From Alphaproteobacteria bacterium (GTDB lineage Bacteria > Pseudomonadota > Alphaproteobacteria > Bin95), in assembly GCA_022827685.1 (NCBI GenBank), contig JAJEIH010000047.1:16536-80535 (forward strand): a stretch of 64,000 nucleotides of DNA. The letters are read 5' to 3'. Below the pieces are notes generated by a model. The model worked only from the letters and a program-made list of their open reading frames with translations, had not been told where the DNA came from and did not search any database. This document shows, in pieces, positions 1-63,943 of the stretch (position 1 is its first letter; every line of letters starts with the position of its first letter). Made by a program: the position numbers and the translations under genes.

Positions 1-1206
1 ATCCGCCGGGACTTCCCGATCCTCGCGCGCGAGGTGTTCGGCAAGCCGCTGGTCTATCTGGACACGGGCGCGAGCGCCCAGAAGCCGCGCCAGGTCATCC
101 GCGCCATGACGCAAGTGATGGAGGAGACCTACTCCAACGTCCATCGCGGCGTGCATTTCCTCTCCCAGGCCTGCACGGACCAGTTCGAGGCGGCCCGGGA
201 GACGGTGGCGCGCTTCATCAATGCGCCGGAAGCCGACGAAATCGTCTGGACGCGCGGCGCCACGGAAGCCCTCAACCTCGTGGCCGCGACCTGGGGCCGG
301 GCGAATGTCGGGCCGGGCGACCGGATCGTCATTTCGACCCTGGAGCACCATTCCAACATCGTGCCCTGGCAATTGCTGCGCGACGAGACGGGGGCGGAGC
401 TTGCGGTCATTCCCGTGGACGATGCGGGCGAGGTCGATCTCGACGCCTATGCCGCGCTGCTGGACGACGGCCGGGCGAAGCTCGTCTCGGTCACCCATGT
501 CTCCAACTCCATCGGCACCGTGCTGCCGATCGGGCAGATGGCGCGGATGGCGCATGAGAAGGGCGCGCTGTTCATGGTGGACGGCTGCCAGGCCGCGCCG
601 CACATGCCGGTCGATGTGCAGGAGCTCGGCGTCGATTTCTACTGCTTCTCCGGGCACAAGACCTACGGGCCGACCGGCATCGGCGCGCTCTGGGGCCGGA
701 AGGCGCTGCTCGACGCCATGCCCCCCTACCAGGGCGGCGGCGAGATGATCGCGCATGTCACCTTCGAGAAGAGCACCTTCAAGGCCGCGCCGCACAAATT
801 CGAGGCCGGCACGCCCGCCATCGTCGAGGCGGTGGGGCTGGGCGCGGCGCTCGACTATATCGAGGCCGTCGGGCGCGACGCGATCCTGGCGCATGAGACG
901 GATGTCGCCGAATATGCCCGCGAGCGCCTTGCCGCCGTGCCGGGCGTGCGCATCGTCGGCCATGCGCGCGAGCGGGGCGCCATCGTCTCCTTCACCATGG
1001 ACCGGGCCCACCCCCACGACATCGGCACCATCATCGACCGGGCGGGCGTGGCGGTGCGCGCCGGCCATCACTGCGCCTTCCCCGTCATGGAGCGCTTCGA
1101 TGTCGGCGCGACGGCCAGGGCCTCCTTCGGGCTCTACAACATGAAGAGCGAGGTGGACCGGCTGGTCGAGGCGCTGGACGAGGTCGCGGAGATCTTCGGG
1201 CGATGA
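1..1206 (+). CDS. sufS: Cysteine desulfurase SufS, 5'-partial (true start lies upstream of the window)
   Basis: Translation shows class-V aminotransferase / SufS hallmarks (VYLDTGASAQKP, HHSNIVPW, FSGHKTYGPTGIGAL). The protein homology continues upstream of the first ATG at 34 (IRRDFPILAREV...). It is followed by further suf genes. Confidence 0.9.
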   Translation: MRRDFPILAREVFGKPLVYLDTGASAQKPRQVIRAMTQVMEETYSNVHRGVHFLSQACTDQFEAARETVARFINAPEADEIVWTRGATEALNLVAATWGRANVGPGDRIVISTLEHHSNIVPWQLLRDETGAELAVIPVDDAGEVDLDAYAALLDDGRAKLVSVTHVSNSIGTVLPIGQMARMAHEKGALFMVDGCQAAPHMPVDVQELGVDFYCFSGHKTYGPTGIGALWGRKALLDAMPPYQGGGEMIAHVTFEKSTFKAAPHKFEAGTPAIVEAVGLGAALDYIEAVGRDAILAHETDVAEYARERLAAVPGVRIVGHARERGAIVSFTMDRAHPHDIGTIIDRAGVAVRAGHHCAFPVMERFDVGATARASFGLYNMKSEVDRLVEALDEVAEIFGR

Positions 1207-1670
1207 ACGAGCTGCGCGAGCTTTACCAGGAGGTGATCCTCGACCACGGGCGCAATCCGCGCAATTTCCGCCGCATCGAGGACGCCGACGGCGAGGCGAA
1301 GGGCGACAACCCGCTCTGCGGCGACCGGGTGCATGTCTTCGTCAAGCTGAACGGGGCGGGCGGGCTCGGCGACGTGGCCTTCCAGGGACGCGGCTGCGCG
1401 ATCTCGACCGCGTCCGCCTCGATGATGACCGAGCTGCTGAAGGGGCGCAGCGAGGCGGAGGCCCGCCGGCTGTTCGACGTGTTCCACGCCGTCTGCACGG
1501 ACGAGGCGTTCGACCCGCTGGACGTGCCGGAGGAGTTCGGGGACGAGGCGGACAGGCTCCAGGTCATGGCGGGTGTGCGCCAGTTCCCGATGCGGGTAAA
1601 ATGCGCGACCTTGCCGTGGCATACTTTCGCGGCCGCGCTCGACGGCAAGGCGACGGCGACAACGGAATAG
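1203..1670 (+). CDS. SUF-system NifU/SufU-family Fe-S cluster scaffold-like protein
   Basis: 155 aa with the SufU/NifU-like motifs LCGDRVHVFVKL and GRGCAISTASASMM. The start overlaps the sufS stop as ATGA. Confidence 0.8.
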   Translation: MNELRELYQEVILDHGRNPRNFRRIEDADGEAKGDNPLCGDRVHVFVKLNGAGGLGDVAFQGRGCAISTASASMMTELLKGRSEAEARRLFDVFHAVCTDEAFDPLDVPEEFGDEADRLQVMAGVRQFPMRVKCATLPWHTFAAALDGKATATTE

Positions 1671-1691
1671 GCGGGGACGGGACGGAGAACG

Positions 1692-2090
1692 ATGGAAGGG
1701 ACGATGCCCTTCGAGCAGTGGATGGGCGGCGAGCCGCTGCAGGAGTTCCGCGCCGAGGCGGGAGCGCCGCTGGAGCCGGGCTCGCCGATTGCGCCGCATG
1801 CGAACCTGATCGCGGCGCTCAAGACCGTGTACGACCCCGAGATTCCGGTGGACATTTACGAACTCGGCCTCATTTACGATCTTGAGCAGGCTGAGGACGG
1901 CTCGGTGCGCGTCGAGATGAGCCTGACCGCGCCCGGCTGCCCGGTCGCCGGCGAGATGCCGGGCATGGTGGCCGAGGCCGTGGCGGGCGTGCAGGGCGTC
2001 GGCGAGGTCGAGGTCCGGCTGGTGTGGGAGCCGGCCTGGACGATGGAGCGCATGAGCGAGGAGGCCCGCCTCGCGCTCGACATGTGGTGA
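1692..2090 (+). CDS. DUF59/SufT-like Fe-S assembly protein (MIP18 family)
   Basis: 132 aa with a typical DUF59 core (LKTVYDPEIPVDIYELGLIY, LTAPGCPVAGEM). It sits in the suf operon position. Confidence 0.8.
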   Translation: MEGTMPFEQWMGGEPLQEFRAEAGAPLEPGSPIAPHANLIAALKTVYDPEIPVDIYELGLIYDLEQAEDGSVRVEMSLTAPGCPVAGEMPGMVAEAVAGVQGVGEVEVRLVWEPAWTMERMSEEARLALDMW

Positions 2091-2106
2091 GGACAAGGAG
2101 GCCGAC

Positions 2107-2442
2107 ATGCCAGAGCCGATGATCCGGATGACGGACGCCGCCGCCGAGCGGGTGCGCCACCTCATGTCGCTGTCGGAAGAGCCGGCGGTCGGCCTGCGCG
2201 TCGGCGTGCGCACGCGCGGCTGCTCCGGCCTCTCCTACTCCGTCGAATACGCCAGGGAGCGCAAGCCCTATGAGGAGGCCATCGAGTCGAACGGCGTGAC
2301 CGTGCTGATCGACCCGACCGCGGTCATGTTCCTCATCGGCTCGGTGATGGACTACCGCGAAGGCATCTTCGAATCCGGCTTCACCTTCGAGAACCCCAAC
2401 GCCAAGGGCACCTGCGGCTGCGGCGAAAGCTTCCATGTGTGA
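2107..2442 (+). CDS. sufA: Fe-S cluster insertion protein, HesB/IscA/SufA family
   Basis: 111 aa with the A-type carrier signature, including C-terminal CGCGESF and an internal RGCSGLSYS. Confidence 0.85.
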   Translation: MPEPMIRMTDAAAERVRHLMSLSEEPAVGLRVGVRTRGCSGLSYSVEYARERKPYEEAIESNGVTVLIDPTAVMFLIGSVMDYREGIFESGFTFENPNAKGTCGCGESFHV

Positions 2443-2534
2443 GGGCGGCTGACGGCTTGCCGCCGGGGCTTGAACCGGGCGGGCGCAGCGCCGATATTGG
2501 CGACTGGTACCGACAACGCTAACGGAGACCGCAA

Positions 2535-3296
2535 ATGGCCTTCGACAATCTGAGGACGACGGCGCGCGCCGCCGGCCGCAGCACGACCCGCACCGCGGAG
2601 CTCGATGCCGGCCTGCGCAAGCACATGCTCGGCATCTACAACTACATGGCCTCGGGCGTGCTGCTCACGGGCATCGTCGCCTATCTGGTGTTCACCATGG
2701 CGGTGGCGCAGACGCCCGGCGGCCAGATGGCGCTGACGACCTTCGGGCAGGCGATCTACCTCTCGCCGCTCAAATGGGTGCTGATGCTCTCGCCGCTCGC
2801 CTTCATCCTCGTGCTGAGCTTCGGCGTCCACCGCCTGAGCACGCCCGCGACGCAGGGGCTGTTCTGGGTGTTCTGCGCGCTCATGGGCGCGAGCATCAGT
2901 TCGATCTTCCTGCAATATACCGGCACCAGCATAGCGCGCGTGTTCTTCATCACCGCGGCCGCCTTCGCCGGCCTCAGCCTCTACGGCTACACCACGAAGC
3001 GCGACCTCTCCGGCATGCGCTCCTTCCTGGTGATGGGGCTGATCGGCGTCATCATCGCCTCGCTGGTCAACCTGTTCCTCGCCTCGAGCGCGCTCCACTT
3101 CGCCGTGTCGGTGATCGGCGTTCTGGTGTTCGCGGGCTTCACCGCCTACGACACCCAGCGCATCAAGAGCGAGTACTATCACGGCTACGACGCCGCCGTG
3201 ATGGCGAAGAAATCGGTGATGGACGCGCTGATGCTCTATCTGAGCTTCATCAACATGTTCCTGCTGCTGCTGAGCCTGTTCGGCAACAGGGAATAG
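2535..3296 (+). CDS. Bax inhibitor-1/YccA family membrane protein
   Basis: 253 aa multi-pass membrane protein. The N-terminal pattern (LRKHMLGIYNYMASGVLLTGIVAY) matches the BI-1/YccA family. Confidence 0.85.
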   Translation: MAFDNLRTTARAAGRSTTRTAELDAGLRKHMLGIYNYMASGVLLTGIVAYLVFTMAVAQTPGGQMALTTFGQAIYLSPLKWVLMLSPLAFILVLSFGVHRLSTPATQGLFWVFCALMGASISSIFLQYTGTSIARVFFITAAAFAGLSLYGYTTKRDLSGMRSFLVMGLIGVIIASLVNLFLASSALHFAVSVIGVLVFAGFTAYDTQRIKSEYYHGYDAAVMAKKSVMDALMLYLSFINMFLLLLSLFGNRE

Positions 3297-3297
3297 G

Positions 3298-3606
3298 TCA
3301 GAGGCCGACCCTCACCCTCCCGCCATCGTCGATCACCGGGCGCTTCACCAGGGCCGGATGCGCGAGCATCAGGCGCCTGGCCCGGCCGGCGCCGAGCCCC
3401 GCCTTTTCGGCCTCGTCGAGCGCCCGCCAGGTGGTGCTGCGCCGGTTGAGCAGCGCCTCCCAGCCGAGCGCGCCGATCCAGCGGTCCAGCATCGCGCCGT
3501 CCAGCCCGTCCTCGCGCAGGTCGTGGAAGCGGTGCTCGCGGCCGGCCAGCGCCTTCCGCGCCTTGCGGCAGGCATCGCAACTCTTCAGTCCATAGACGGT
3601 CAGCAT
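3298..3606 (-). CDS. ArsC/Spx/YffB-family (arsenate-reductase-like) protein
   Basis: The C-terminal 102 aa of a long minus-strand ORF begin MLTVYGLKSCDACRKARKAL, a typical ArsC-family N-terminus. The rest of the 414-aa ORF is antisense to the hydrolase and rejected. Confidence 0.7.
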   Translation of the reverse strand: MLTVYGLKSCDACRKARKALAGREHRFHDLREDGLDGAMLDRWIGALGWEALLNRRSTTWRALDEAEKAGLGAGRARRLMLAHPALVKRPVIDDGGRVRVGL

Positions 3607-3708
3607 GGGCGCGCGTTCCTCCGGTCGGCGGGTCCGGTATAGTCGCATGACGGCGTTCCGGAGGGGAAGCGCCGCCGGCCGTCCGCCACATTTCCGGGGA
3701 GCCCGCCC

Positions 3709-4590
3709 ATGCAGGGTCCTGAGAGTCATTCCTATTTCTCGCAGCGCCTGCGCCTGCACTATGTCGACTGGGGCAATCCCGACGCGCCGCCGCTGCTGCT
3801 GATCCACGGCGGGCGGGACCACTGCCGCAACTGGGACTGGGTCGCCGAGGCGCTCCGGGACGATTACCGCATCGTCGCCCCGGACCTGCGCGGCCACGGC
3901 GACAGCGCCTGGTTCGTCGGCGGCGCCTACGCGATGGCGGACTATGTCTATGACATCGCGCAGCTCGTCCACCAGAAGCGGCTCGCCCCGGTCACGGTCA
4001 TCGGCCACTCGCTCGGCGGCTCCATCGCGCTCCACTATGCCGGCGTCTATCCGGAGACGGTGAAGGCGCTTGTCGCCATCGAGGGGCTCGGGGCCTCGCC
4101 CGCGCAGATCGAGGCGCGCAGGGCCCGGTCCATCGACGACCGGCTCAGGGAGTGGATCGACACCCAGCGCGGCCTTTCCGGCCGGCTGCCGCGCCGCTAC
4201 GACTCGCTGGAGGACGCGTACCGGCGAATGCAGGAGGCCAATCCCCGCCTGACGGAAGCCCAGGCCCGCCACCTCACCGTCCACGGCGCCAACCAGAACG
4301 AGGACGGCACCTACAGCTGGAAGTTCGACAATTACAGCCGCGCCGACCGCCCGGTCGGCATCTATCCGGAGGAGAGCTTCCGGCTCTGGTCGCGGATCAC
4401 CTGCCCGACGCTGCTGGTGCGCGGCCTCGAAAGCTGGGTCGGCGACCCGGAGGCGGACGGCCGCGCCGCCCATTTCCAGAGTGCCCGCTTCGTCGATGTC
4501 GCGGGCGCCGGCCACTGGGTGCATCACGACCGGCTGGAGCATTTCCTCGGCCTCGTGCGCGGCTTTCTCGCGGAGGCGGAGGCTGGCTAG
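3709..4590 (+). CDS. Alpha/beta-fold hydrolase
   Basis: 293 aa with LLLIHGGRDH and the nucleophile elbow GHSLGG. Confidence 0.85.
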   Translation: MQGPESHSYFSQRLRLHYVDWGNPDAPPLLLIHGGRDHCRNWDWVAEALRDDYRIVAPDLRGHGDSAWFVGGAYAMADYVYDIAQLVHQKRLAPVTVIGHSLGGSIALHYAGVYPETVKALVAIEGLGASPAQIEARRARSIDDRLREWIDTQRGLSGRLPRRYDSLEDAYRRMQEANPRLTEAQARHLTVHGANQNEDGTYSWKFDNYSRADRPVGIYPEESFRLWSRITCPTLLVRGLESWVGDPEADGRAAHFQSARFVDVAGAGHWVHHDRLEHFLGLVRGFLAEAEAG

Positions 4591-4614: not shown

Positions 4615-6804
4615 ATGGACGACGCCCTGCCCGCCGCGCCTGCCGCCGACGCCCCCTGGCTCGCCGGGCTGAACCCCCCGCAGCGCGAGGCGGTCGAAAC
4701 GCTGGAGGGGCCGCTGCTGGTGCTCTCCGGCGCGGGCACCGGCAAGACGCGGGTGCTGACCGCGAGGCTCGCGCTGCTGCTGGCCATGAAGCGCGCCTGG
4801 CCCAGCCAGATCCTGGCGGTCACCTTCACCAACCGGGCGGCGAACGAAATGCGCGAGCGGGTGGAGGCGCTGATCGGCGAGATGAGCGCCGGCCTCTGGC
4901 TCGGCACCTTCCACGCGCTCGGCCTGCGCATATTGCGCCGCCATCCCGAGCTCGTGGGCCTCAGGCCCTCCTTCTCGATCCTGGACCCGGACGACCAGGA
5001 GCGTCTTCTGAAACAGGTGCTGGCGGACGCGAATGTGGATGCCAAGCACTGGCCGGCGCGCCAGCTTTCGACCGTCGTCCAGCGCTGGAAGGACAAGGGG
5101 TGGCGCCCGGACCAGGTGCCGGCCCACGAGGCGGGCAGCTTCGCCAACGGCCGCGCGCCCGCGCTTTACGAGGCCTATCAGGAGCGGCTTGCCGACCTCA
5201 ACGCCGTCGATTTCGGCGACCTGCTGCTCCACAACCTGACCATCTTCCAGCGCGATGCGGAGGTGCTGGCGCAATACCAGGAGCGGTTCCGCTACATCCT
5301 CGTGGACGAATACCAGGACACCAATATCGCCCAGTATCTCTGGCTCCGCCTGCTCGCCCAGCGCCGGCGCAACATCTGCTGCGTCGGCGACGACGACCAG
5401 TCGATCTACGGATGGCGCGGGGCGGAGGTCGGCAACATCCTGCGCTTCGAGAACGATTTCGACGGCGCCAGGATCGTCCGGCTGGAGCAGAACTATCGCT
5501 CGACCGGCGACATTCTGGGCGCCGCCTCGGGGCTGATCGCCAACAATCGCGGCCGCCTCGGCAAGACGCTCTGGACAGACCGCGAGGACTCCCGCCCGAT
5601 TACCGTCCACACCGTTCCCGACGGGGAGGCGGAGGCGCGGCTTGCCGGCGCGGAAATCGAGACGCTGCAGCGCGCCGGGACCGGCCTCGGACAGATGGCG
5701 GTTCTCGTGCGAGCCTCATTCCAGATGCGCGCCTTCGAGGAGCGGTTCGTCGCGCTCGGGCTGAATTACCGGGTCATCGGCGGCCCGCGCTTCTACGAGC
5801 GCCGCGAGGTGAGGGACGCCATCGCCTATCTGCGCGCCGTCCTCTTCCCCGAGGACGATCTTGCCTTCGAGCGGATCGTCAACCTGCCGAAACGCGGCAT
5901 TGGCGACGCCACCCTGCAACCGGTGCATCGCCTCGCCCGCGCCGAGCGGATCCCGCTCGGCCAGGCGGCGCGCCGTCTGGTCGAGACGGAGGAATTGAAG
6001 GCCCGGGCCCGCAACGCGCTCGCCGGCTTCTGCCGCGCCATCGACGGCTGGCGCGCCCGGCTCGGCAGCGAGCCGCACGCAGACCTTGCCGACGCGATTC
6101 TCGAGGAGAGCGGCTACCGCGAGATGTGGCGGAAGGACAAGGGCCTCGACGCCCCCGGCCGGCTGGAGAATCTGGGCGAACTCGTGCAGCAGATCGCCCG
6201 GTTCGACACCCTCGAAGAGTTTCTGGAGCATGTCGCCCTGGTGATGGAGGCCGAAGGCGGCAGCGAAGCGGAAAGCGTCTCCCTGATGACGCTCCACGGC
6301 GCCAAGGGGCTCGAATTCGACATCGTGTTCCTGCCGGGCTGGGAGGAGGGCCTGTTCCCCCACCAGCGCGCGCTCGCCGAGAACGGGCTTGCCGGCCTGG
6401 AGGAGGAACGCCGCCTCGCCTATGTCGGCATCACCCGCGCGCGCCGGCATGTCACGATCTCCTCCGCCATGACCCGCATGGTCATGGGTCGGTGGCTCAG
6501 CCCGCTCCCGTCCCGATTCATCGACGAGCTGCCCGATGAGCATGTGGAGCGGCAGTCGGAGAATGCGTTCGGCGAGGCCCCCGCCTGGCGCTACGGCGCG
6601 GGCGTCGGGCGCGTGATCGACGCCGCGGCATGGGAGGTGAAACCGCGCGCGCCCCGCACCGGCCAATTCGAGATCGGCCAGCGCGTCTTTCATCAGAAGT
6701 TCGGCTATGGAGCCGTGCGGGCCGTCGACCGGGAGAAACTCACCGTCGCCTTCGAGACCTCCGGCGACAAGACCCTGATCGAGAGCTTCGTCGAGCCCGC
6801 CTGA
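4615..6804 (+). CDS. uvrD: UvrD/Rep-family ATP-dependent DNA helicase (likely UvrD)
   Basis: 729 aa carrying Walker A (GAGTGKT) and the helicase motifs DEYQDTN, VGDDDQSIYGWRGA and TLHGAKGLEFD. Confidence 0.85.
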   Translation: MDDALPAAPAADAPWLAGLNPPQREAVETLEGPLLVLSGAGTGKTRVLTARLALLLAMKRAWPSQILAVTFTNRAANEMRERVEALIGEMSAGLWLGTFHALGLRILRRHPELVGLRPSFSILDPDDQERLLKQVLADANVDAKHWPARQLSTVVQRWKDKGWRPDQVPAHEAGSFANGRAPALYEAYQERLADLNAVDFGDLLLHNLTIFQRDAEVLAQYQERFRYILVDEYQDTNIAQYLWLRLLAQRRRNICCVGDDDQSIYGWRGAEVGNILRFENDFDGARIVRLEQNYRSTGDILGAASGLIANNRGRLGKTLWTDREDSRPITVHTVPDGEAEARLAGAEIETLQRAGTGLGQMAVLVRASFQMRAFEERFVALGLNYRVIGGPRFYERREVRDAIAYLRAVLFPEDDLAFERIVNLPKRGIGDATLQPVHRLARAERIPLGQAARRLVETEELKARARNALAGFCRAIDGWRARLGSEPHADLADAILEESGYREMWRKDKGLDAPGRLENLGELVQQIARFDTLEEFLEHVALVMEAEGGSEAESVSLMTLHGAKGLEFDIVFLPGWEEGLFPHQRALAENGLAGLEEERRLAYVGITRARRHVTISSAMTRMVMGRWLSPLPSRFIDELPDEHVERQSENAFGEAPAWRYGAGVGRVIDAAAWEVKPRAPRTGQFEIGQRVFHQKFGYGAVRAVDREKLTVAFETSGDKTLIESFVEPA

Positions 6805-8423: not shown

Positions 8424-8585
8424 CGGCCGGTGGACTCCTTTCGCGCGGCTTGCTAGAGCGTTTCGCCATGGACGGAACCGTTCCTGTCTCCTTCATTGCC
8501 GGCTGCGGCGCCTTGCCGTCCTGCGCGACCGGGCATTATGCCAAGGCGCTCAATGCACGACTCATGTTGAGGGCACTCGGCTTTC

Positions 8586-8717
8586 TCCCCTCCCGCTCGG
8601 CGGGAGGGGTAGGGGGAGGGCCTCTCGGCGCGACGGGTCTTTGCCGGGCTTCGCCCGCCGCTTCCGCTGGCGCGGAAGCAGGCCCCCACCCGGCCTCCCC
8701 CGCAAGCGGGGGAGGAG
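8586..8717. repeat. REP/RIME-like intergenic mosaic element, copy 1 (stacked GC-rich hairpins)
   Basis: About 130 bp made of consecutive palindromes (cccctcccgctcggcgggagggg; gccgcttccgc...gcggaagc; cctcccccgcaagcgggggagg). It is about 85% identical to a second copy at 10633-10764 in the same orientation. Confidence 0.6.
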
Positions 8718-8778
8718 AGTCCCGGAGGCAGTCGCCATCGGTTCCGATCAACGACCGTTGGCATTAGGCGCCGGGTCC

Positions 8779-9768
8779 ATGCCCACCGCGCCGAAACCGC
8801 TCGTCATCGTCACGCGCAAGCTCCCCGACGCGGTGGAAACGCGCATGATGGAGCTGTTCCGCACCGAGCTGAACGACGGCGACCGGCAATGGGACCGCGC
8901 CGAACTGCTCGAGGCCATGGGCCGGGCGGACGTGCTGGTGCCGACCGTGACCGACCGCATCGACGCGGAGTGCCTGGAGGCCGCCGGCCCCGGGCTCAAG
9001 CTGCTGGCGAGCTTCGGCGCGGGCGTGGACCATATCGACCTCGCGGCCGCGCATGAGCGGGGCATCATGGTCACCAACACGCCGGGCGTGCTGACGGGCG
9101 ACACGGCGGACATGACCATGGCCCTCATCCTCTCGGTCTCGCGCCGGCTCATCGAGGGCGAGCGCCTTGTGCGGACCGGGGGATGGCTCGGCTGGGCGCC
9201 GACGGCGCTGCTCGGCCACCGGATTTACGGCAAGCGGCTCGGCATTGTCGGCATGGGCCGGATCGGGGCGGCGGTGGCCCGGCGCGCGCGCGGCTTCGGC
9301 ATTTCGATCCACTACCACAACCGCCGGCGCACCGACCCCGACATCGAGGCCGAGCTGGAGGCGACCTACTGGGAGAGCCTCGACCAGATGCTGGCGCGCA
9401 TGGACATCGTGTCGATCAACTGCCCGCACACGCCTGCGACCTACCATCTGCTGTCGCGCCGCCGCCTCGCGCTGATGAAGCCGCATGCCTATATCGTCAA
9501 CACCTCGCGCGGCGAGGTGATCGACGAGCCGGCGCTTCTGGAAGCCCTGCTCGCCGGCAGGCTCGCCGGCGCGGCGCTCGACGTGTTCGAGCGCGAGCCG
9601 GCCATCGACCCGAAGCTGCGCGAGCTCGACAATGTGGTGCTGCTGCCGCATATGGGCTCGGCCACCCTGGAAGGCCGGCTGGAAATGGGCGAGCGGGTGA
9701 TCGTCAACATCAGGGCCTTCACGGACGGCCACCGCCCGCCGGACCGGGTTCTCGAACAGTTCTTCTGA
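8779..9768 (+). CDS. D-isomer-specific 2-hydroxyacid dehydrogenase (glyoxylate/hydroxypyruvate reductase-like)
   Basis: 329 aa from the ATG at 8779 (MPTAPKPLVIVTRKLP...). It has the NAD-binding GIVGMGRIG and catalytic-region motifs. The longer upstream ORF extension runs through the REP element and is rejected. Confidence 0.85.
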   Translation: MPTAPKPLVIVTRKLPDAVETRMMELFRTELNDGDRQWDRAELLEAMGRADVLVPTVTDRIDAECLEAAGPGLKLLASFGAGVDHIDLAAAHERGIMVTNTPGVLTGDTADMTMALILSVSRRLIEGERLVRTGGWLGWAPTALLGHRIYGKRLGIVGMGRIGAAVARRARGFGISIHYHNRRRTDPDIEAELEATYWESLDQMLARMDIVSINCPHTPATYHLLSRRRLALMKPHAYIVNTSRGEVIDEPALLEALLAGRLAGAALDVFEREPAIDPKLRELDNVVLLPHMGSATLEGRLEMGERVIVNIRAFTDGHRPPDRVLEQFF

Positions 9769-10103
9769 GAGGACATGGCTCCACTACGGACAGGCCCGCC
9801 GCAGCCGGCCGGGGCCGCACCTGCTTCCTCACCCTCGACATGCGGTTCCAGGAGAAGCGCCGCCGCCGTCCCCGGCAGCCCCCCGGGCCGGACTTACCGG
9901 ATTCGCACATCTCCAGCGTCGGGTTTGCATCGCGCGGCCCACAACCGTCGCCCCGGCCCCCGAGCCGGGGTGACGAAAAGGGGGGCGGAATGGGCAGTAG
10001 CCGGGCCAGCGGCGCGCCGGATACAGGTCGGGAGAGAAGCCGGCTTCTTTCGTGAATTATGAAAAATTTCTAGATTTTTCAAATTTTGTTCGTGTTTTGG
10101 GCT

Positions 10104-10133
10104 TGACATCTGGCGGATTGTGTTATGATGGTC
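10104..10133 (+). promoter_or_regulatory. Near-consensus sigma70-type promoter (TTGACA, 15-16 nt spacer, TATGAT) preceded by an AT-rich UP-like tract
   Basis: The motif ttgacatctggcggattgtgttatgatgg sits at the 3' edge of an 80-bp AT-rich island (10056-10100: gaattatgaaaaatttctagatttttcaaattttgttcg) within otherwise 68% GC DNA. Confidence 0.35.
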
Positions 10134-10360
10134 CCCGGGGAGGCGGCATCCGGAGCCGCGTCCCGGGCGTCGCGCGGCCGGGCGGCGCCACTTTCTGAAA
10201 ACCCGTGAGAAGCCGACGGGAGAGGTGCGCCCTCTGCCTCGCGCGCGCAATCAGGCGCGCGAACCGCGCCGCCGCGATACGCGCGCCGGCGCGCGCACAG
10301 GCGCCCGCGCAGGATACGCGCGGAACAGGGACCCGCTCCCGGTCGGCAGAAGGAGGAACG

Positions 10361-10500
10361 ATGACGGCAACCGACCCCCGCCCCGCACTGGCCGCGATGC
10401 TGGCCGAAAGGCTCGCCCCTGCCGCCGCGGCCCTTGCCGGCGCCTGTGCGGAAGACATGAACGCCGGGCAGCCGCCGGAGGACGCCCGCGTTCCGGGACT
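10361..10500 (+). other. Small SD-preceded ORF (MTATDPRPALAAMLAERLAPAAAALAGACAEDMNAGQPPEDA...) whose reading frame becomes non-coding-like after about 45 codons; possible frameshifted small gene or leader peptide
   Basis: A strong Shine-Dalgarno (gaaggagga) sits 6 nt before the ATG at 10361. GC3-rich codon usage holds for about 45 codons, after which a +1 frame (TPAFRDWLARQERREAADMAATEAAAGGGGGW) looks more coding-like. The frame then runs into REP element copy 2. Confidence 0.2.
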
Positions 10501-10632
10501 GGCTCGCCCGGCAGGAGCGCCGCGAGGCCGCAGACATGGCCGCAACGGAAGCCGCAGCCGGAGGCGGGGGCGGGTGGCGACGGGTGGTAGGGCATGCTCC
10601 GCCCGGGTTGAAACGGCCGGTCCGGAGCGTCC

Positions 10633-10764
10633 TCCCCTCCCGCTCGGCGGGAGGGGTTGGGGGCGAGCCTCTCCGCGCGACGGGCCTCTGCCGGGCTCCG
10701 CCCGCCGCTTCCGCTGGCGCGCAAGCGGCCCCCCTCCCGGCCTCCCCCGCAAGCGGGAGAGGAG
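10633..10764. repeat. REP/RIME-like intergenic mosaic element, copy 2
   Basis: It shares a roughly 130-bp core with copy 1 (8586-8717), with the same stacked palindromes. Confidence 0.6.
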
Positions 10765-10975
10765 GTCAAAGAGCGGAGAGGCTTATGCCCGAAACGGCTA
10801 CAGCATATGAACTCTGCGCATGAAGAACATGACATCGCATGACACTTCATGACGCGCTGCGGGGTCTCTTCGCGTCGCCCGAACGCAATCGCTCCCTGCC
10901 CGTCCGGCGCGGGGGTTGCCGCCGGGCCGCTCTGCCGCCATGTTGCGGAGGCCGTCCCGGAACCGGGGTAGAGAG

Positions 10976-11866
10976 ATGGAGATTGCGGCAAGCGCGCCCG
11001 GCGTCGTGAAGGACGCCACCGACCAGACCTTCATGGCCGATGTCATCGAAGCCTCGATGACGGCGCCGGTGATCGTCGATTTCTGGGCGCCCTGGTGCGG
11101 CCCCTGCAAGCAATTGGGGCCGGTGCTCGAGAAGGTCGTGTCCAATGCCGGCGGCAAGGTCAGCCTCGTCAAGGTCGATATCGACAAGAGCCCGGTGGTC
11201 GCGCAGCAGATGCGCATCCAGTCGATCCCGGCCGTCTATGCCTTCGACCAGGGGCGCCCGGTCGATGCCTTCATGGGCGCGTTGCCGGAGAGCCAGGTCA
11301 AGGCGTTTGTCGAGCGGCTGGTGGGCGGGCCGGTCGAATCGGCCGTCGAGGCCGCTGTCGAGCAGGCCCGCGCGGCGCTGGAGGGCGGCGACGCGCAGAC
11401 CGCGGGCGCGATCCTCAACGAAGTGCTGAGGCAGGAGCCGGAGAACGCCGCCGCCATTGCCGGCCTTGCCCAGGTGTTTCTCGCCGTGGACGAGGTCACG
11501 CAAGCCCGCGCCATGCTGGACCGGCTGCCCGACGGCGCCGGCCAGGACCCGGCGGTGGCCGCGGCCGTCACCGCGGTGGAGCTCGCCGAGCAGAGCGCGG
11601 ATGCGGGCGACACGGCGGATCTGCGCGGCGCGGTGGAAGCCGACCCGGACGACCACCAGGCGCGCTTCGACCTGGCGATGGCGCTGTTCGGCGGCGGACG
11701 CCACAAGGAGGCGGCGGAGGAACTGCTGGAGCTCTACCGCCGCGACCGGGAATGGAATGACGGCGCGGCCCGCAGCCAGCTCGTCAAATTCTTCGAGGCG
11801 TGGGGGCCGATGCACGAACTCACGGTCGATATCCGCCGCCGCCTCTCGACCCTGATGTTCAGCTAG
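10976..11866 (+). CDS. Thioredoxin-domain protein with C-terminal TPR region (YbbN/CnoX-like co-chaperone)
   Basis: The protein from the ATG at 10976 (MEIAASAPGVVKDATDQTFMADVIEA...) carries the thioredoxin active-site motif WAPWCGPCK. The C-terminal half is helical and repeat-rich. Confidence 0.85.
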   Translation: MEIAASAPGVVKDATDQTFMADVIEASMTAPVIVDFWAPWCGPCKQLGPVLEKVVSNAGGKVSLVKVDIDKSPVVAQQMRIQSIPAVYAFDQGRPVDAFMGALPESQVKAFVERLVGGPVESAVEAAVEQARAALEGGDAQTAGAILNEVLRQEPENAAAIAGLAQVFLAVDEVTQARAMLDRLPDGAGQDPAVAAAVTAVELAEQSADAGDTADLRGAVEADPDDHQARFDLAMALFGGGRHKEAAEELLELYRRDREWNDGAARSQLVKFFEAWGPMHELTVDIRRRLSTLMFS

Positions 11867-11879
11867 GGAGCAGGCGGCC

Positions 11880-12533
11880 GTGGCCCTCAGGCGATCCCTG
11901 CCGGAGGTCATCCCGGTTTTCCCGCTGCCCGGCGTGCTGCTGCTGCCGCGCGCCATGCTGCCGCTGCATATCTTCGAGCCGCGCTACCGGGCGATGATTC
12001 GCGATGCGCTGGGCGATGAGGGAATCGTCGGCATGGTGCAGCCCTGCGCGGAAGGGACCGACCCGGCGAACCCGCCGATCTACGGGATCGGCTGCGCCGG
12101 CAAGATCCAGAACTCGGAAAAGCTCGACGACGGGCGCTACATGATCGCGCTGCAGGGCATCGCCCGCTTTCGCATAGACCGCGAGCTGGCGCGCCATCCC
12201 GACGGCTACCGCACCGTCCATGCGGATTTCGAGGGGTTTGGAGACGACCTCGACGCGCGCCGCAGCGGCCCGGTGGACCGCGACGGCCTGCTGGAGGCGC
12301 TCCGCGGCTTCCTGGCGCGGCGGGGGCTCAGCGCCGACTGGGACGCCGTGGGCAGCGCCGACGACGAAATGCTGGTCAACGCGCTCTCCATGGGCTGTCC
12401 CTTCGCGCCCAACGAGAAGCAGGCGCTGCTCGAATGCGGCGACACCGGCGAGCGCGCCCGGATGCTGGAAACGCTGTTTGCGATGTCGGGCTTCCAGGCG
12501 GCGAACGACGACGACCCGGCGCGGATGAATTGA
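11880..12533 (+). CDS. LON substrate-binding (Lon N-terminal) domain protein
   Basis: 217 aa with [29 protein letters not shown], typical of stand-alone LON N-domain proteins. It immediately follows the thioredoxin gene. Confidence 0.85.
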
Positions 12534-18858: not shown

Positions 18859-19023
18859 CCCCGACGGGGCCTGCAGCGGCTCGCCGCGCACGAGGCAGGA
18901 CGGCGAGCGGAATGCAGGCTCGGATGCCTTTCGCCAGCGCAATGGGGCGGAGACGGACTATGTTCGCAAGAAGTCAGTAATAATTCTTGTAATGACATTG
19001 ACATTATGGAATGACAGACCATA

Positions 19024-19326
19024 TTGGGACGAAGGAAGGAGACGGCAGTGACGGACGATTTCGGAATCTGGGAAGTGGACGAGGCGGAGAAAACCGCACA
19101 TCCGTTGAAGACGGCCGGGAGCGCCGGGACGGAAGCCCTGCTGGAGCACATTCTGGCGCGGAACCCCGACATGCTGATGCCGGGCCTCAAATTGGTCGGG
19201 AGGCAATTGCCGGCAGCCAACTGGGCTCTGGACCTGCTGGGCGGCGACTCAGAAGGCCGGCTCGTCCTGTTCGAACTGAAGCAGGAGAAGCTCAGGCGCG
19301 AGGCGGCGGAGCAGCTGCTTCCGTGA
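19024..19326 (+). pseudogene. Truncated NucS/DUF91-like PD-(D/E)xK nuclease fragment
   Basis: ALLEHILARNPDMLMPGLKLVGRQLPAANWALDLLGGDSEGRLVLFELK matches the start of the NucS-type nuclease core. A stop follows only 14 codons after the ELK motif. The fragment is preceded by an AT-rich patch (18960-19030) and abuts the ubiH-like start. Confidence 0.35.
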
Positions 19327-20640: not shown

Positions 20641-21168
<528 letters not shown>

Positions 21169-62885: not shown

Positions 62886-63055
62886 AATTCAGGGGCTTCG
62901 CCTCCGGCCGGATCGGGTGGAAGAGGCGTAATTTCGGATAATCCTCTCTGCCGACGACGCCAGGAGCAAGGCGGGCGCTTGCATTTGCCAGCCGTCTTCC
63001 GATTTTATATATTGGAAGTTCAAATGTTTCTGGTGTGTCAATAATAGGTCAAGAC

Positions 63056-63943
63056 ATGATTGATATTGATACCAAGCTCTTTCGCTCTTTCCTCTGTGTC
63101 GCCGCAGAGCAGAGCTTCTCGACGGCTGCCCGACGGCTGGAATACTCCCAGGCGACCATGTCGCTGCACATACGCGCGCTGGAAGAAAAACTCGGCGCCC
63201 GTTTGCTTCACCGAAGCCCCCATAACGTGACCCTGACGGCCGAGGGACACCGGCTGCTGCCGGAAATCCGGGCGTTGGTGGACATGCACGACCGGATGGT
63301 CGGGCGTCTGCAGTCGGGACCCGTTTACGGCCAGGTCCGTCTCGGAGTCGAAGAAGCCTGCGCCGTCTCGCTTCTTCCCGGGCTTCTGAAATACGTGGTC
63401 GAGGAACACCCGTCGATGGATCTGGATGTCCGGTGCGAGCCAGGCGAGCGCCTCGGACACATGGTTGAGGCGCGCCTGCTGGACCTTGCTGTCGTCTCCC
63501 TGCCGCGCGAGGAGCCCTCGGCGCTGGTTCTGCAGCGCCCGCAACTGCACTGGGTCGCATCGCCCGATTTCCGGCTTGACAGCGAGGCACCCGTTCCGGT
63601 GGCCTGGGGCGAGAAGGACAGCCCCTTCCGGGCTGCAGGAATTGCCGAACTGAGTCGTCGCGGGATCGCCAGTCGGGAAATTTTCCGAAGTTCCGACGAG
63701 CAGGCCGTGAAGGTCGCCGTTGCAGCCGGAATAGCCGTCACCGTCATGGCCGAGGGAACCATTCCGGACACGTTCAAGGTGCTTCTCCCGCGCGCAACCC
63801 TTCCGCCGCTCGGAAAGGCCTTCATCCAGCTGCTGGAGAGACCGGGCCCGCACTCCGAAGCGACCGAATTGGTCAAACGGAAGATCATCGACACCTATCG
63901 GGAGCTGGACAGGCGGACTCCCCCGATGGCGGATGCGGTGTGA
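63056..63943 (+). CDS. LysR-family transcriptional regulator
   Basis: The N-terminal HTH (LFRSFLCVAAEQSFSTAARRLEYSQATMSLHIRALEEKLGARLLHR) is followed by a LysR substrate-binding domain. GC is about 58% with an AT-rich upstream region. The start could be 63035 or 63056. Confidence 0.85.
   Translation: MIDIDTKLFRSFLCVAAEQSFSTAARRLEYSQATMSLHIRALEEKLGARLLHRSPHNVTLTAEGHRLLPEIRALVDMHDRMVGRLQSGPVYGQVRLGVEEACAVSLLPGLLKYVVEEHPSMDLDVRCEPGERLGHMVEARLLDLAVVSLPREEPSALVLQRPQLHWVASPDFRLDSEAPVPVAWGEKDSPFRAAGIAELSRRGIASREIFRSSDEQAVKVAVAAGIAVTVMAEGTIPDTFKVLLPRATLPPLGKAFIQLLERPGPHSEATELVKRKIIDTYRELDRRTPPMADAV

Follow-up and report, generated by a model that had tools for sequence, protein, structure and literature searches.

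The 64-kb stretch of alphaproteobacterial contig JAJEIH010000047.1 analyzed here (the window; mean GC 68%) carries at about 10044-10864 what is very probably one degenerate copy of a dispersed, roughly 1-kb expression cassette, specific to a clade of uncultured, high-GC Alphaproteobacteria. In order, an intact cassette would comprise an AT-rich, UP-like tract; a near-consensus σ70-type promoter with an extended -10; a 224-nt 5′ untranslated region (5′ UTR, or leader); and a strong Shine-Dalgarno (SD) sequence with an open reading frame (ORF) for a protein of 141-158 aa, or of about 200 aa where an internal module is doubled. A block resembling repetitive extragenic palindromes (REP) would often follow, and a CATGACA array would close the unit. 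Comparison with intact copies shows that in the window the ORF has evidently been inactivated by two lesions, a microhomology deletion of ~200 nt and a second frameshift, with the predicted promoter and the leader left intact.

One Cassette at Several Unrelated Intergenic Sites

Cassette DNA was compared in four copies, two of which (L094 and L095) come from a single genome:

10044..10864, + strand: whole cassette copy of the window, 821 nt long (about 1,000-1,030 nt when intact), delimited by homology to paralogous and orthologous copies in differing flanks
L094, 5702-6704: copy between a CBS gene (left) and a proline racemase gene (right), in the same genome as L095
L095, 5699-6686: copy with the same dehydrogenase gene on its left as in the window, and on its right a Lactamase_B gene, not the thioredoxin-type gene (trx) of the window
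L096, ~5700-6390: copy between a GST gene (left) and an SLT_4 lytic transglycosylase gene (right), in a different, 5.46-Mb genome

The L095 genome belongs to the same species as the window and is 98-99% identical to it in the left flank; within the cassette, these two copies are about 93% identical over the left half, and identity drops to 82% over the right. All four copies present their parts in a common order, from the AT-rich tract through promoter, leader, SD and ATG, and ORF to the usual REP-like block and the right end, and together these comparisons show that the parts travel together and occupy several unrelated intergenic sites per genome. The family counts at least three copies per genome, and several contigs hold three members each, such as a 3.6-Mb contig with P0244, P0245 and P0357 and a 666-kb contig with P0260, P0265 and P0361. 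The right boundary can be fixed at ..GCGGGG because all flanks diverge there, making for a sharp edge beyond which every copy differs, and the left boundary, inside the AT-rich island, is placed to about ±10 nt. Right-end remnants of the cassette are additionally found in L081 and L083.

As with insertion sequences (IS) and miniature inverted-repeat transposable elements (MITEs), the cassette is multi-copy and polymorphic for presence and absence; neither terminal inverted repeats nor a target-site duplication is consistent across its copies, and no transposase or integrase gene lies in or beside any copy examined. Dispersed repeats that bear a promoter together with a small gene under a regulatory leader are, as a general kind of object, familiar. 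This one is lineage-restricted: neither its protein family nor its leader is present in the curated libraries searched, plasmid and phage collections gave no blastn match to 9770-10630, viral contigs returned 0 matches in exact-pattern scans, and a leader 21-mer returned 0 matches in the JGI metagenomes. Judging by their contig names and protein accessions, the relatives may be metagenome-assembled genomes (MAGs) of marine-invertebrate (sponge) symbionts.

In the window, the cassette is bordered by two genes:

8779-9768: 2-hydroxyacid dehydrogenase gene (2-Hacid_dh), left flank
10976-11866: thioredoxin/YbbN-type gene (trx), right flank

The close relatives of trx (85-96% protein identity), all from MAGs of uncultured Alphaproteobacteria, mostly have the formate-tetrahydrofolate ligase gene FTHFS directly upstream, L082 and L085-L087 included, and the dehydrogenase relatives L088-L093 have an ATPase zeta-inhibitor gene downstream, with TANGO2 and purC also downstream in close relatives. 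The cassette is absent from the orthologous sites in both sets (L088-L093; L082 and L085-L087), and nucleotide homology to relatives ends at 9768-9770; in L081 it restarts at 10785, and for the other relatives at about 10897. Two neighborhoods that are not linked elsewhere are connected here by about 1 kb of lineage-specific DNA, and the cassette lies at this synteny breakpoint. Remnants of the zeta-inhibitor gene, TANGO2, purC or FTHFS were sought by tblastn across the window, with negative results.

An AT-Rich Left End and a Near-Consensus Promoter

The left end of the cassette holds two elements:

10044..10100, + strand: AT-rich left end, UP-element-like, 26% GC
10103..10129, + strand: predicted promoter, with -35 TTGACA at 10103-10108, a 15-nt spacer and extended -10 TGtTATGAT at 10121-10129

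A first-pass annotation of the window, made from the sequence alone, had singled out an AT island of low GC ending in a near-perfect σ70 promoter. The low GC is borne out, with an 80-nt minimum of 32.5% starting at 10045 (bottom 0.1% of 80-nt windows), 10055-10093 at 18% GC, and the island being one of just four clusters below 45% GC in the 64 kb. An imperfect inverted repeat, AATTATGAAAAAT / ATTTTTCAAATTT, spans 10055-10086. All four copies preserve the AT-richness as well as the motifs TGAAwAAT..C and wTTTTGTTC, at an overall tract identity of 66-87%, and the island is best read as the conserved left end of the repeat, that is, the cassette's own UP-like element, and not as a feature of the local genome. 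Three further AT-rich islands lie elsewhere in the window (18928-19040, 20670-20770 and 62965-63120), the first of which contains TTGACATTATGG and several ATGACA motifs resembling the unit of the cassette's right end; another (GTTTGAAAAAGTTCTGAAAAAAGC..) is found at L094 5390-5470, about 300 nt upstream of the L094 cassette.

Much of the promoter claim stands as well. The -35 hexamer matches the consensus at 6/6 positions and is invariant in the four copies, and the -10 hexamer TATGAT (10124-10129) matches at 5/6, preceded by a TGn extension (TG at 10121-10122) and likewise conserved in all four; the spacer had been given as 15 or 16 nt and is exactly 15, not 16. The promoter region as a whole is 92-100% identical among all four copies, the sole change near the -10, found in L096, affecting the n of TGn. 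A single TTGACA-N14-18-TATNAT is present in the window, where 0.01 would be expected. A σ70 promoter scan with 16-18-nt spacers reports no promoter at the site, which it misses because the spacer is only 15 nt.

A Leader More Conserved than Its Gene

Between promoter and ORF lies the feature that had been noted as a GC-rich leader of about 225 nt, a description that matches its measured extent and composition. RNAalifold, run on the four sequences, proposes four elements within it:

10137..10360, + strand: GC-rich 5′ UTR, 224 nt, 76% GC; predicted start at G 10137; most conserved core at ~10186-10275
Leader element 1: 5′ hairpin, candidate
Leader element 2 (H2): GC hairpin at about 10167-10190, with CUUUCU next to it, candidate
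Leader element 3: small hairpin, candidate
Leader element 4: long-range helix pairing 10211-10225 with 10331-10348, closing a multi-hairpin domain and ending 2 nt before the SD, candidate

Leader identity reaches 96-99% among the window, L094 and L095, with Jukes-Cantor-corrected distances of 0.013-0.035 among these three and of 0.12-0.145 to L096; synonymous divergence (dS) in the adjoining codons amounts to 0.19-0.44. For L094 versus L095, the leader differs at 3/230 positions and the ORF at about 22/107 synonymous sites (Fisher P = 2e-9). Judged by these substitutions, the leader is certainly constrained, and since the synonymous sites of the ORF have diverged more, it is probably a cis-regulatory 5′ UTR, with an RNA structure that is a candidate only. 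P0330, a diverged family ORF that reads through its own leader, still aligns to that of the window, so that gene and leader stay together over greater evolutionary distances as well.

The copies differ in the leader by indels of 1, 2 and 16 nt, and because these break every frame the leader is non-coding; the same indels rule out an N-terminal extension of the ORF from GTG 10205 and a leader peptide. Two minus-strand ORFs (10079-10537 and 10123-10752) were also rejected, their products being Arg-rich, wrong-frame and without homologues.

The four sequences show one compensatory pair and three wobble-preserving changes; pairing in hairpin H2 is kept at all three of its variable positions, and the long-range helix has one G-C to A-U exchange. 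The only repeat within the leader is a 10-nt pair, GATACGCGCG occurring twice. The two perfect palindromes previously pointed out in this region are both present in the window; they are not conserved, each carrying a G-to-A change in L094/L095 and the second falling within the 16-nt deletion in L096. The earlier idea of a riboswitch-like or attenuator leader is plausible in view of a 5′ UTR that has diverged far less than the synonymous sites of the ORF, but it gains nothing from Rfam, from fold energy, from covariation, of which there is almost none, or from these palindromes.

Rfam returned nothing relevant at E≤1 on 9000-12000 or on L094-L096, nor when the whole window was scanned with gathering thresholds, and neither a tRNA nor a tmRNA was detected by ARAGORN, in agreement with the earlier failure to see signatures of tmRNA and other RNA families. 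A terminator scan gave no terminator-like site, and none between leader and ORF; with the leader running directly into a conserved SD and ATG, the suggestion of a highly expressed small RNA is not upheld.

A Small Protein Family and Its Decayed Copy in the Window

The coding part of the window copy is broken into pieces:

10350..10358, + strand: Shine-Dalgarno sequence GAAGGAGGA, read from the sequence; kept in L094 and L095, AGAGGAGAG in L096
10361..10492, + strand: N-terminal remnant, codons 1-44; 79-91% identity by tblastn with P0241, P0243, P0245 and P0249; dN/dS 0.15-0.35
10478..10492, + strand: deletion junction, where ~200 nt (codons ~46-107; alignment columns 695-894) are missing relative to L094/L095 at GGAG(G)ACG microhomology, with the frame shifted
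10482..10577, + strand: C-terminal remnant (TPAFRDWLARQERREAADMAA..GGGGGW) in a second frame; 83% identity by tblastn with P0241 aa 108-143
10565..10590, + strand: second frameshift, a small indel in a G-rich run that moves the original ..GDGW-stop (TAG 10588-10590) to a third frame, as judged against P0241, P0246, L094 and L095

The SD had been recognized beforehand, as had the ATG at 10361 that follows it, and both are conserved among copies. A homologue search with a stitched ORF, in which the two frames were joined, returned 35 proteins, the full-length ones containing both halves; in the full-length members P0241-P0246 (135-150 aa), ~62 residues between the halves have no counterpart in the window. 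The product of intact copies is either 141-158 aa long or, where the module YDGSE..Y.G...YVG..TPEF.(D/A)W..ERR is doubled, 196-212 aa; P0357, P0361 and P0290 are examples of this long form, and a K/R-rich tail is seen in some of the family. When 1.84 billion representatives were searched with a profile, 82 cluster representatives were recovered, all of them small proteins. The first 42 codons are 84-91% identical between copies, and dN/dS values of 0.15-0.54 show that purifying selection acts on the protein where copies are intact.

The family matches nothing in Pfam, NCBIfam (E≤1), PADLOC or a PDB sequence search, and the Pfam, NCBIfam and PDB searches likewise reveal no Y1/HUH transposase domain (PF01797) or other known recombinase. 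PADLOC, being negative, offers no support for a type III toxin-antitoxin or known defence system. In PHROGs, a weak match to phrog_31793 (3.7e-5) extends across an Ala-rich stretch and is not a credible family assignment. AlphaFold predicts a helix-helix-linker-β-hairpin-helix fold at low confidence (predicted local distance difference test score, pLDDT, of 64), for which Foldseek finds no structural neighbor in the PDB at E≤0.001. No match to P0276 was found by tblastn in plasmids and phages, and protein-pattern scans of JGI metagenomes and viral contigs gave no confirmed relatives.

With disabling lesions relative to intact homologues under selection, the window copy is evidently a pseudogene. 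In tblastn, residues 1-45 of the family proteins fall on 10361-10495, in the ATG frame, and residues ~108-143 on 10482-10577, in a different frame, which confirms the switch of coding frame that had been noticed after about 45 codons. Among the explanations entertained at that time, a frameshifted small-protein gene fits the homologues of 141-158 aa found intact in relatives, from which the window copy differs by the loss of ~62 codons and a further frameshift. Because of these two lesions, the 150-aa ORF at 10361-10810 is a mis-framed read-through that, as had been seen, runs into the second of two REP copies in the window. Comparison across related genomes, as the first-pass annotation had envisaged, finds leader and promoter conserved and both ORF halves within intact homologues.

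The REP-Like Block and the Right End

Two features close the cassette:

10608..10780, + strand: REP/MITE-like hairpin block (REP copy 2), core 10627-10764, 90% identical to 8580-8717
10785..10864, + strand: conserved right end, ATGCCCGAAACGGCTACAGCATATGAAC followed by the 10-bp-periodic array CATGAAGAA / CATGACATCG / CATGACACTT / CATGACGCGC and ending ..GCGGGG

L095 carries REP copy 2 in the corresponding position, and L094 has part of it there. The other REP copy of the window (copy 1), a 236-nt REP/MITE-like block at 8529-8764 (core 8580-8717), stands alone and is an insertion, being absent from L095, where the flanks are 99% identical, and from L088-L092; its absence from these relatives suggests that the REP family has recently been mobile.

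The cassette terminus reads ..CATGACGC..GCGGGG, and its array consists of 3-5 CATGACAnnn units at 10-bp spacing; a Pho-box reading was rejected, the period being 10 bp and not 11. Many diverged family ORFs read through into the array and end in its translation, ..NMT.HDI.., an indication that conservation of the right end extends through the wider family. Both ends are retained in copies whose internal deletions differ greatly (P0257, P0260, P0264, P0265 and P0268), and over the right-end 60 nt the window shows 1 mismatch against L095 and 8 against the trx-linked copy in L081. The -35 region, TGACATCTGGCGG, closely resembles the last right-end array unit, TGACATCTGCCGG (L094 5744-5756 and 6719-6731; window 10104-10116), and the two cassette ends may share a binding motif.

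Interpretation and Rival Explanations

In light of these comparisons, we propose that in an intact copy the AT tract and promoter would drive strong constitutive transcription of a short gene whose leader, since it evolves several-fold slower than the neighboring synonymous sites, would most likely act in cis, as a regulatory 5′ UTR, on translation or on the fate of the transcript. The window copy, its ORF lost, would still make a non-coding transcript. Homologous recombination between copies would explain why the cassette marks a synteny breakpoint, and such recombination is consistent with the differing right flank of L095 and with the remnants of the right end that precede trx in L081 and L083.

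Several points weigh against this proposal. L094 and L095 share one genome, so that gene conversion could inflate leader identity in a comparison of four copies. The folding energy of the leader is no better than that of dinucleotide shuffles (z = -1.63 on the + strand and -1.45 on the - strand), and the RNAalifold covariation term is unfavorable (+1.88), with just the one compensatory pair. The 15-nt spacer of the promoter lies outside the usual 16-18 nt, for which the extended -10 may make up, and both the transcription start site and promoter strength are predicted ones. The protein, finally, has no recognizable domain and its AlphaFold model is poor.

Four other explanations have to be set against the cassette proposed here. 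That the AT island and promoter-like hexamers reflect the chance composition of an ordinary intergenic spacer might be argued from the short spacer and the silent promoter scan; it is in effect refuted by the recurrence of this AT tract, with its -35 and extended -10 unchanged, in three further copies that lie in different contexts and genomes, and by the rarity of the promoter pattern in a window of this size, and we give it virtually no credence. A small, plainly minor chance attaches to an assembly artefact, in which two copies of a 1-kb repeat were collapsed into a chimera that created the dehydrogenase-cassette-trx adjacency and possibly the internal deletion too: the left flank of L095 is nearly identical and its right flank different, the cassette's right end occurs naturally before trx in L081 and L083, and identity to L095 drops between the two halves. 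The right end of the window is, however, closer to L095 than to the trx-linked copy of L081, collapse alone would not create a microhomology deletion plus a separate frameshift, and genuine recombination between repeats is common. Somewhat more weight, although still well short of favor, goes to the idea that the ORF is secondary and that the cassette's true product is its 224-nt leader, as a self-standing structured non-coding RNA or a riboswitch, which would explain the persistence of ORF-dead copies. The leader is indeed better conserved than the ORF, the upstream part survives in many copies whose ORF is lost after about 40 codons, and pairing is preserved in H2 and, by one exchange, in the long-range helix. 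Against this idea stand the lack of an Rfam match at E≤1 in any copy, a fold energy that is significant on neither strand, the lack of a terminator between leader and ORF, the conserved SD and ATG together with a dN/dS below 1, which shows that the protein matters, and the fact that the truncated ORFs were found via their N-termini and form a biased sample.

Comparably doubtful is a non-autonomous mobile element, in which the AT-rich left end and the CATGACA array would be recombination or replication sites used in trans, with promoter, leader and ORF as cargo or maintenance functions. Its attractions are the multiple unrelated intergenic sites, the presence/absence differences from close relatives, the sharp right boundary at ..GCGGGG, the retention of both ends in copies with very different internal deletions, and the right-end remnants that L081 and L083 carry immediately before the trx promoter. 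It has to contend with the lack of terminal inverted repeats, target-site duplications and any transposase or integrase gene in or beside a copy, with a protein that is not Y1/HUH or another known recombinase, with the absence of matches in phage, plasmid or viral collections, and with the consideration that duplication followed by recombination would account equally well for the distribution. The bolder version, in which the cassette would be an undescribed small selfish or mobile unit with its own strong promoter and a new cis-regulatory RNA leader, spreading without an encoded recombinase through a host or trans-acting factor that would use its AT-rich left end and CATGACA array as sites, appears distinctly improbable, more so than the mobile element in its general form.

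Relation to Known Systems

The cassette described here resembles several known systems in part. The cspA-type cold-shock genes of Escherichia coli combine an AT-rich UP element, a strong promoter and a long, conserved regulatory 5′ UTR with multi-copy small-protein paralogs. The cassette shares with them an AT-rich tract directly upstream of a strong (here predicted) promoter, a long and highly conserved 5′ UTR before a small gene, and several paralogs per genome; it differs in a protein without a cold-shock or other Pfam domain, in a leader of 76% GC without cold-box similarity, and in copies that decay and occupy variable sites, whereas csp loci are stable. IS200, of the IS200/IS605 family, is a multi-copy element of ~0.7 kb with one ORF of ~150 aa, no inverted repeats, subterminal hairpins and a structured 5′ UTR that occludes the ribosome-binding site. 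Here the likeness extends to size class, a single small ORF, the lack of terminal inverted repeats and target duplication, a long leader (GC-rich in the cassette) before the SD, and dispersed intergenic copies. Unlike IS200, the cassette has no Y1_Tnp/HUH signature (Pfam, NCBIfam and PDB negative) and a predicted helix-helix-β-hairpin-helix fold, and its near-consensus promoter contrasts with the weak transcription of IS200.

As dispersed intergenic repeats with regulatory signals and a link to genome rearrangement, REP/BIME (bacterial interspersed mosaic) elements, MITEs and promoter-bearing repeats such as the Correia elements of Neisseria are also comparable; the cassette is set apart from them by its length of about 1 kb, its selected protein-coding gene and its lack of terminal inverted repeats, and has a genuine REP/MITE-like block embedded within it. 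In the RSP_6037 (DUF1127)-CcsR1-4 locus of Rhodobacter sphaeroides and with the alphaproteobacterial "cuckoo" small RNAs, a small ORF is co-transcribed with repeated CCUCCC hairpins, and the cassette likewise has an alphaproteobacterial host, a small orphan ORF and repeated GC-rich CCUCCC hairpins in its 3′ region. It has no Rfam match to these families, however, its protein is not DUF1127, and its CCUCCC runs lie in the stems of a REP that also occurs alone.

What had looked like an odd intergenic patch becomes a defined, lineage-restricted, repeated cassette that would mark rearrangement points in a clade known only from MAGs. It yields, as one uncharacterized object, an orphan small-protein family with a repeatable YDGSE..YVG..TPEF.W module, and its 224-nt 5′ UTR, under stronger constraint than its gene, is a candidate new regulatory RNA motif. 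Annotators should be aware that the 150-aa ORF starting at 10361 is a mis-framed pseudogene, that many short "hypothetical proteins" starting with MTATDPRP in related MAGs are fragments of one family, and that 1-kb repeats of this sort are likely spots for assembly breaks or chimeras.

DNA Flanking the Cassette

On the trx side, a promoter-like region (TTGCCGCCGGGC..GCCGCCATGTTGCGG) at 10897-10975 is conserved in all relatives (L082, L083, L085 and L086), and trx, which keeps this region of its own, evidently does not depend on the cassette promoter. In L083 and L084, the region upstream of trx (positions 1-4000 of these loci) holds an IS1595 transposase gene, a FitA/PIN toxin-antitoxin pair and small hypothetical genes, and a right-end remnant of the cassette (..CATCGCCGGGGG) is fused to the trx promoter there; the site upstream of trx is, from its contents, an apparent insertion hotspot.

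On the dehydrogenase side, 275 nt (9770-10043) separate the dehydrogenase stop from the cassette and are common to L095 only. A GC3-like (third-codon-position) periodicity at 9780-9930 suggests a gene remnant, for which no homologue was found. At 9894-10031 lies a second small repeat, a hairpin CCCCGGCCCCCGAGCCGGGG followed by GTGACGAAAAGGGGGG, which is duplicated in L095 and matches the inside of cassette ORFs in other genomes, at aa 27-73 of P0321 (E = 2.6e-5) and, on the reverse strand, at aa 50-70 of P0250.

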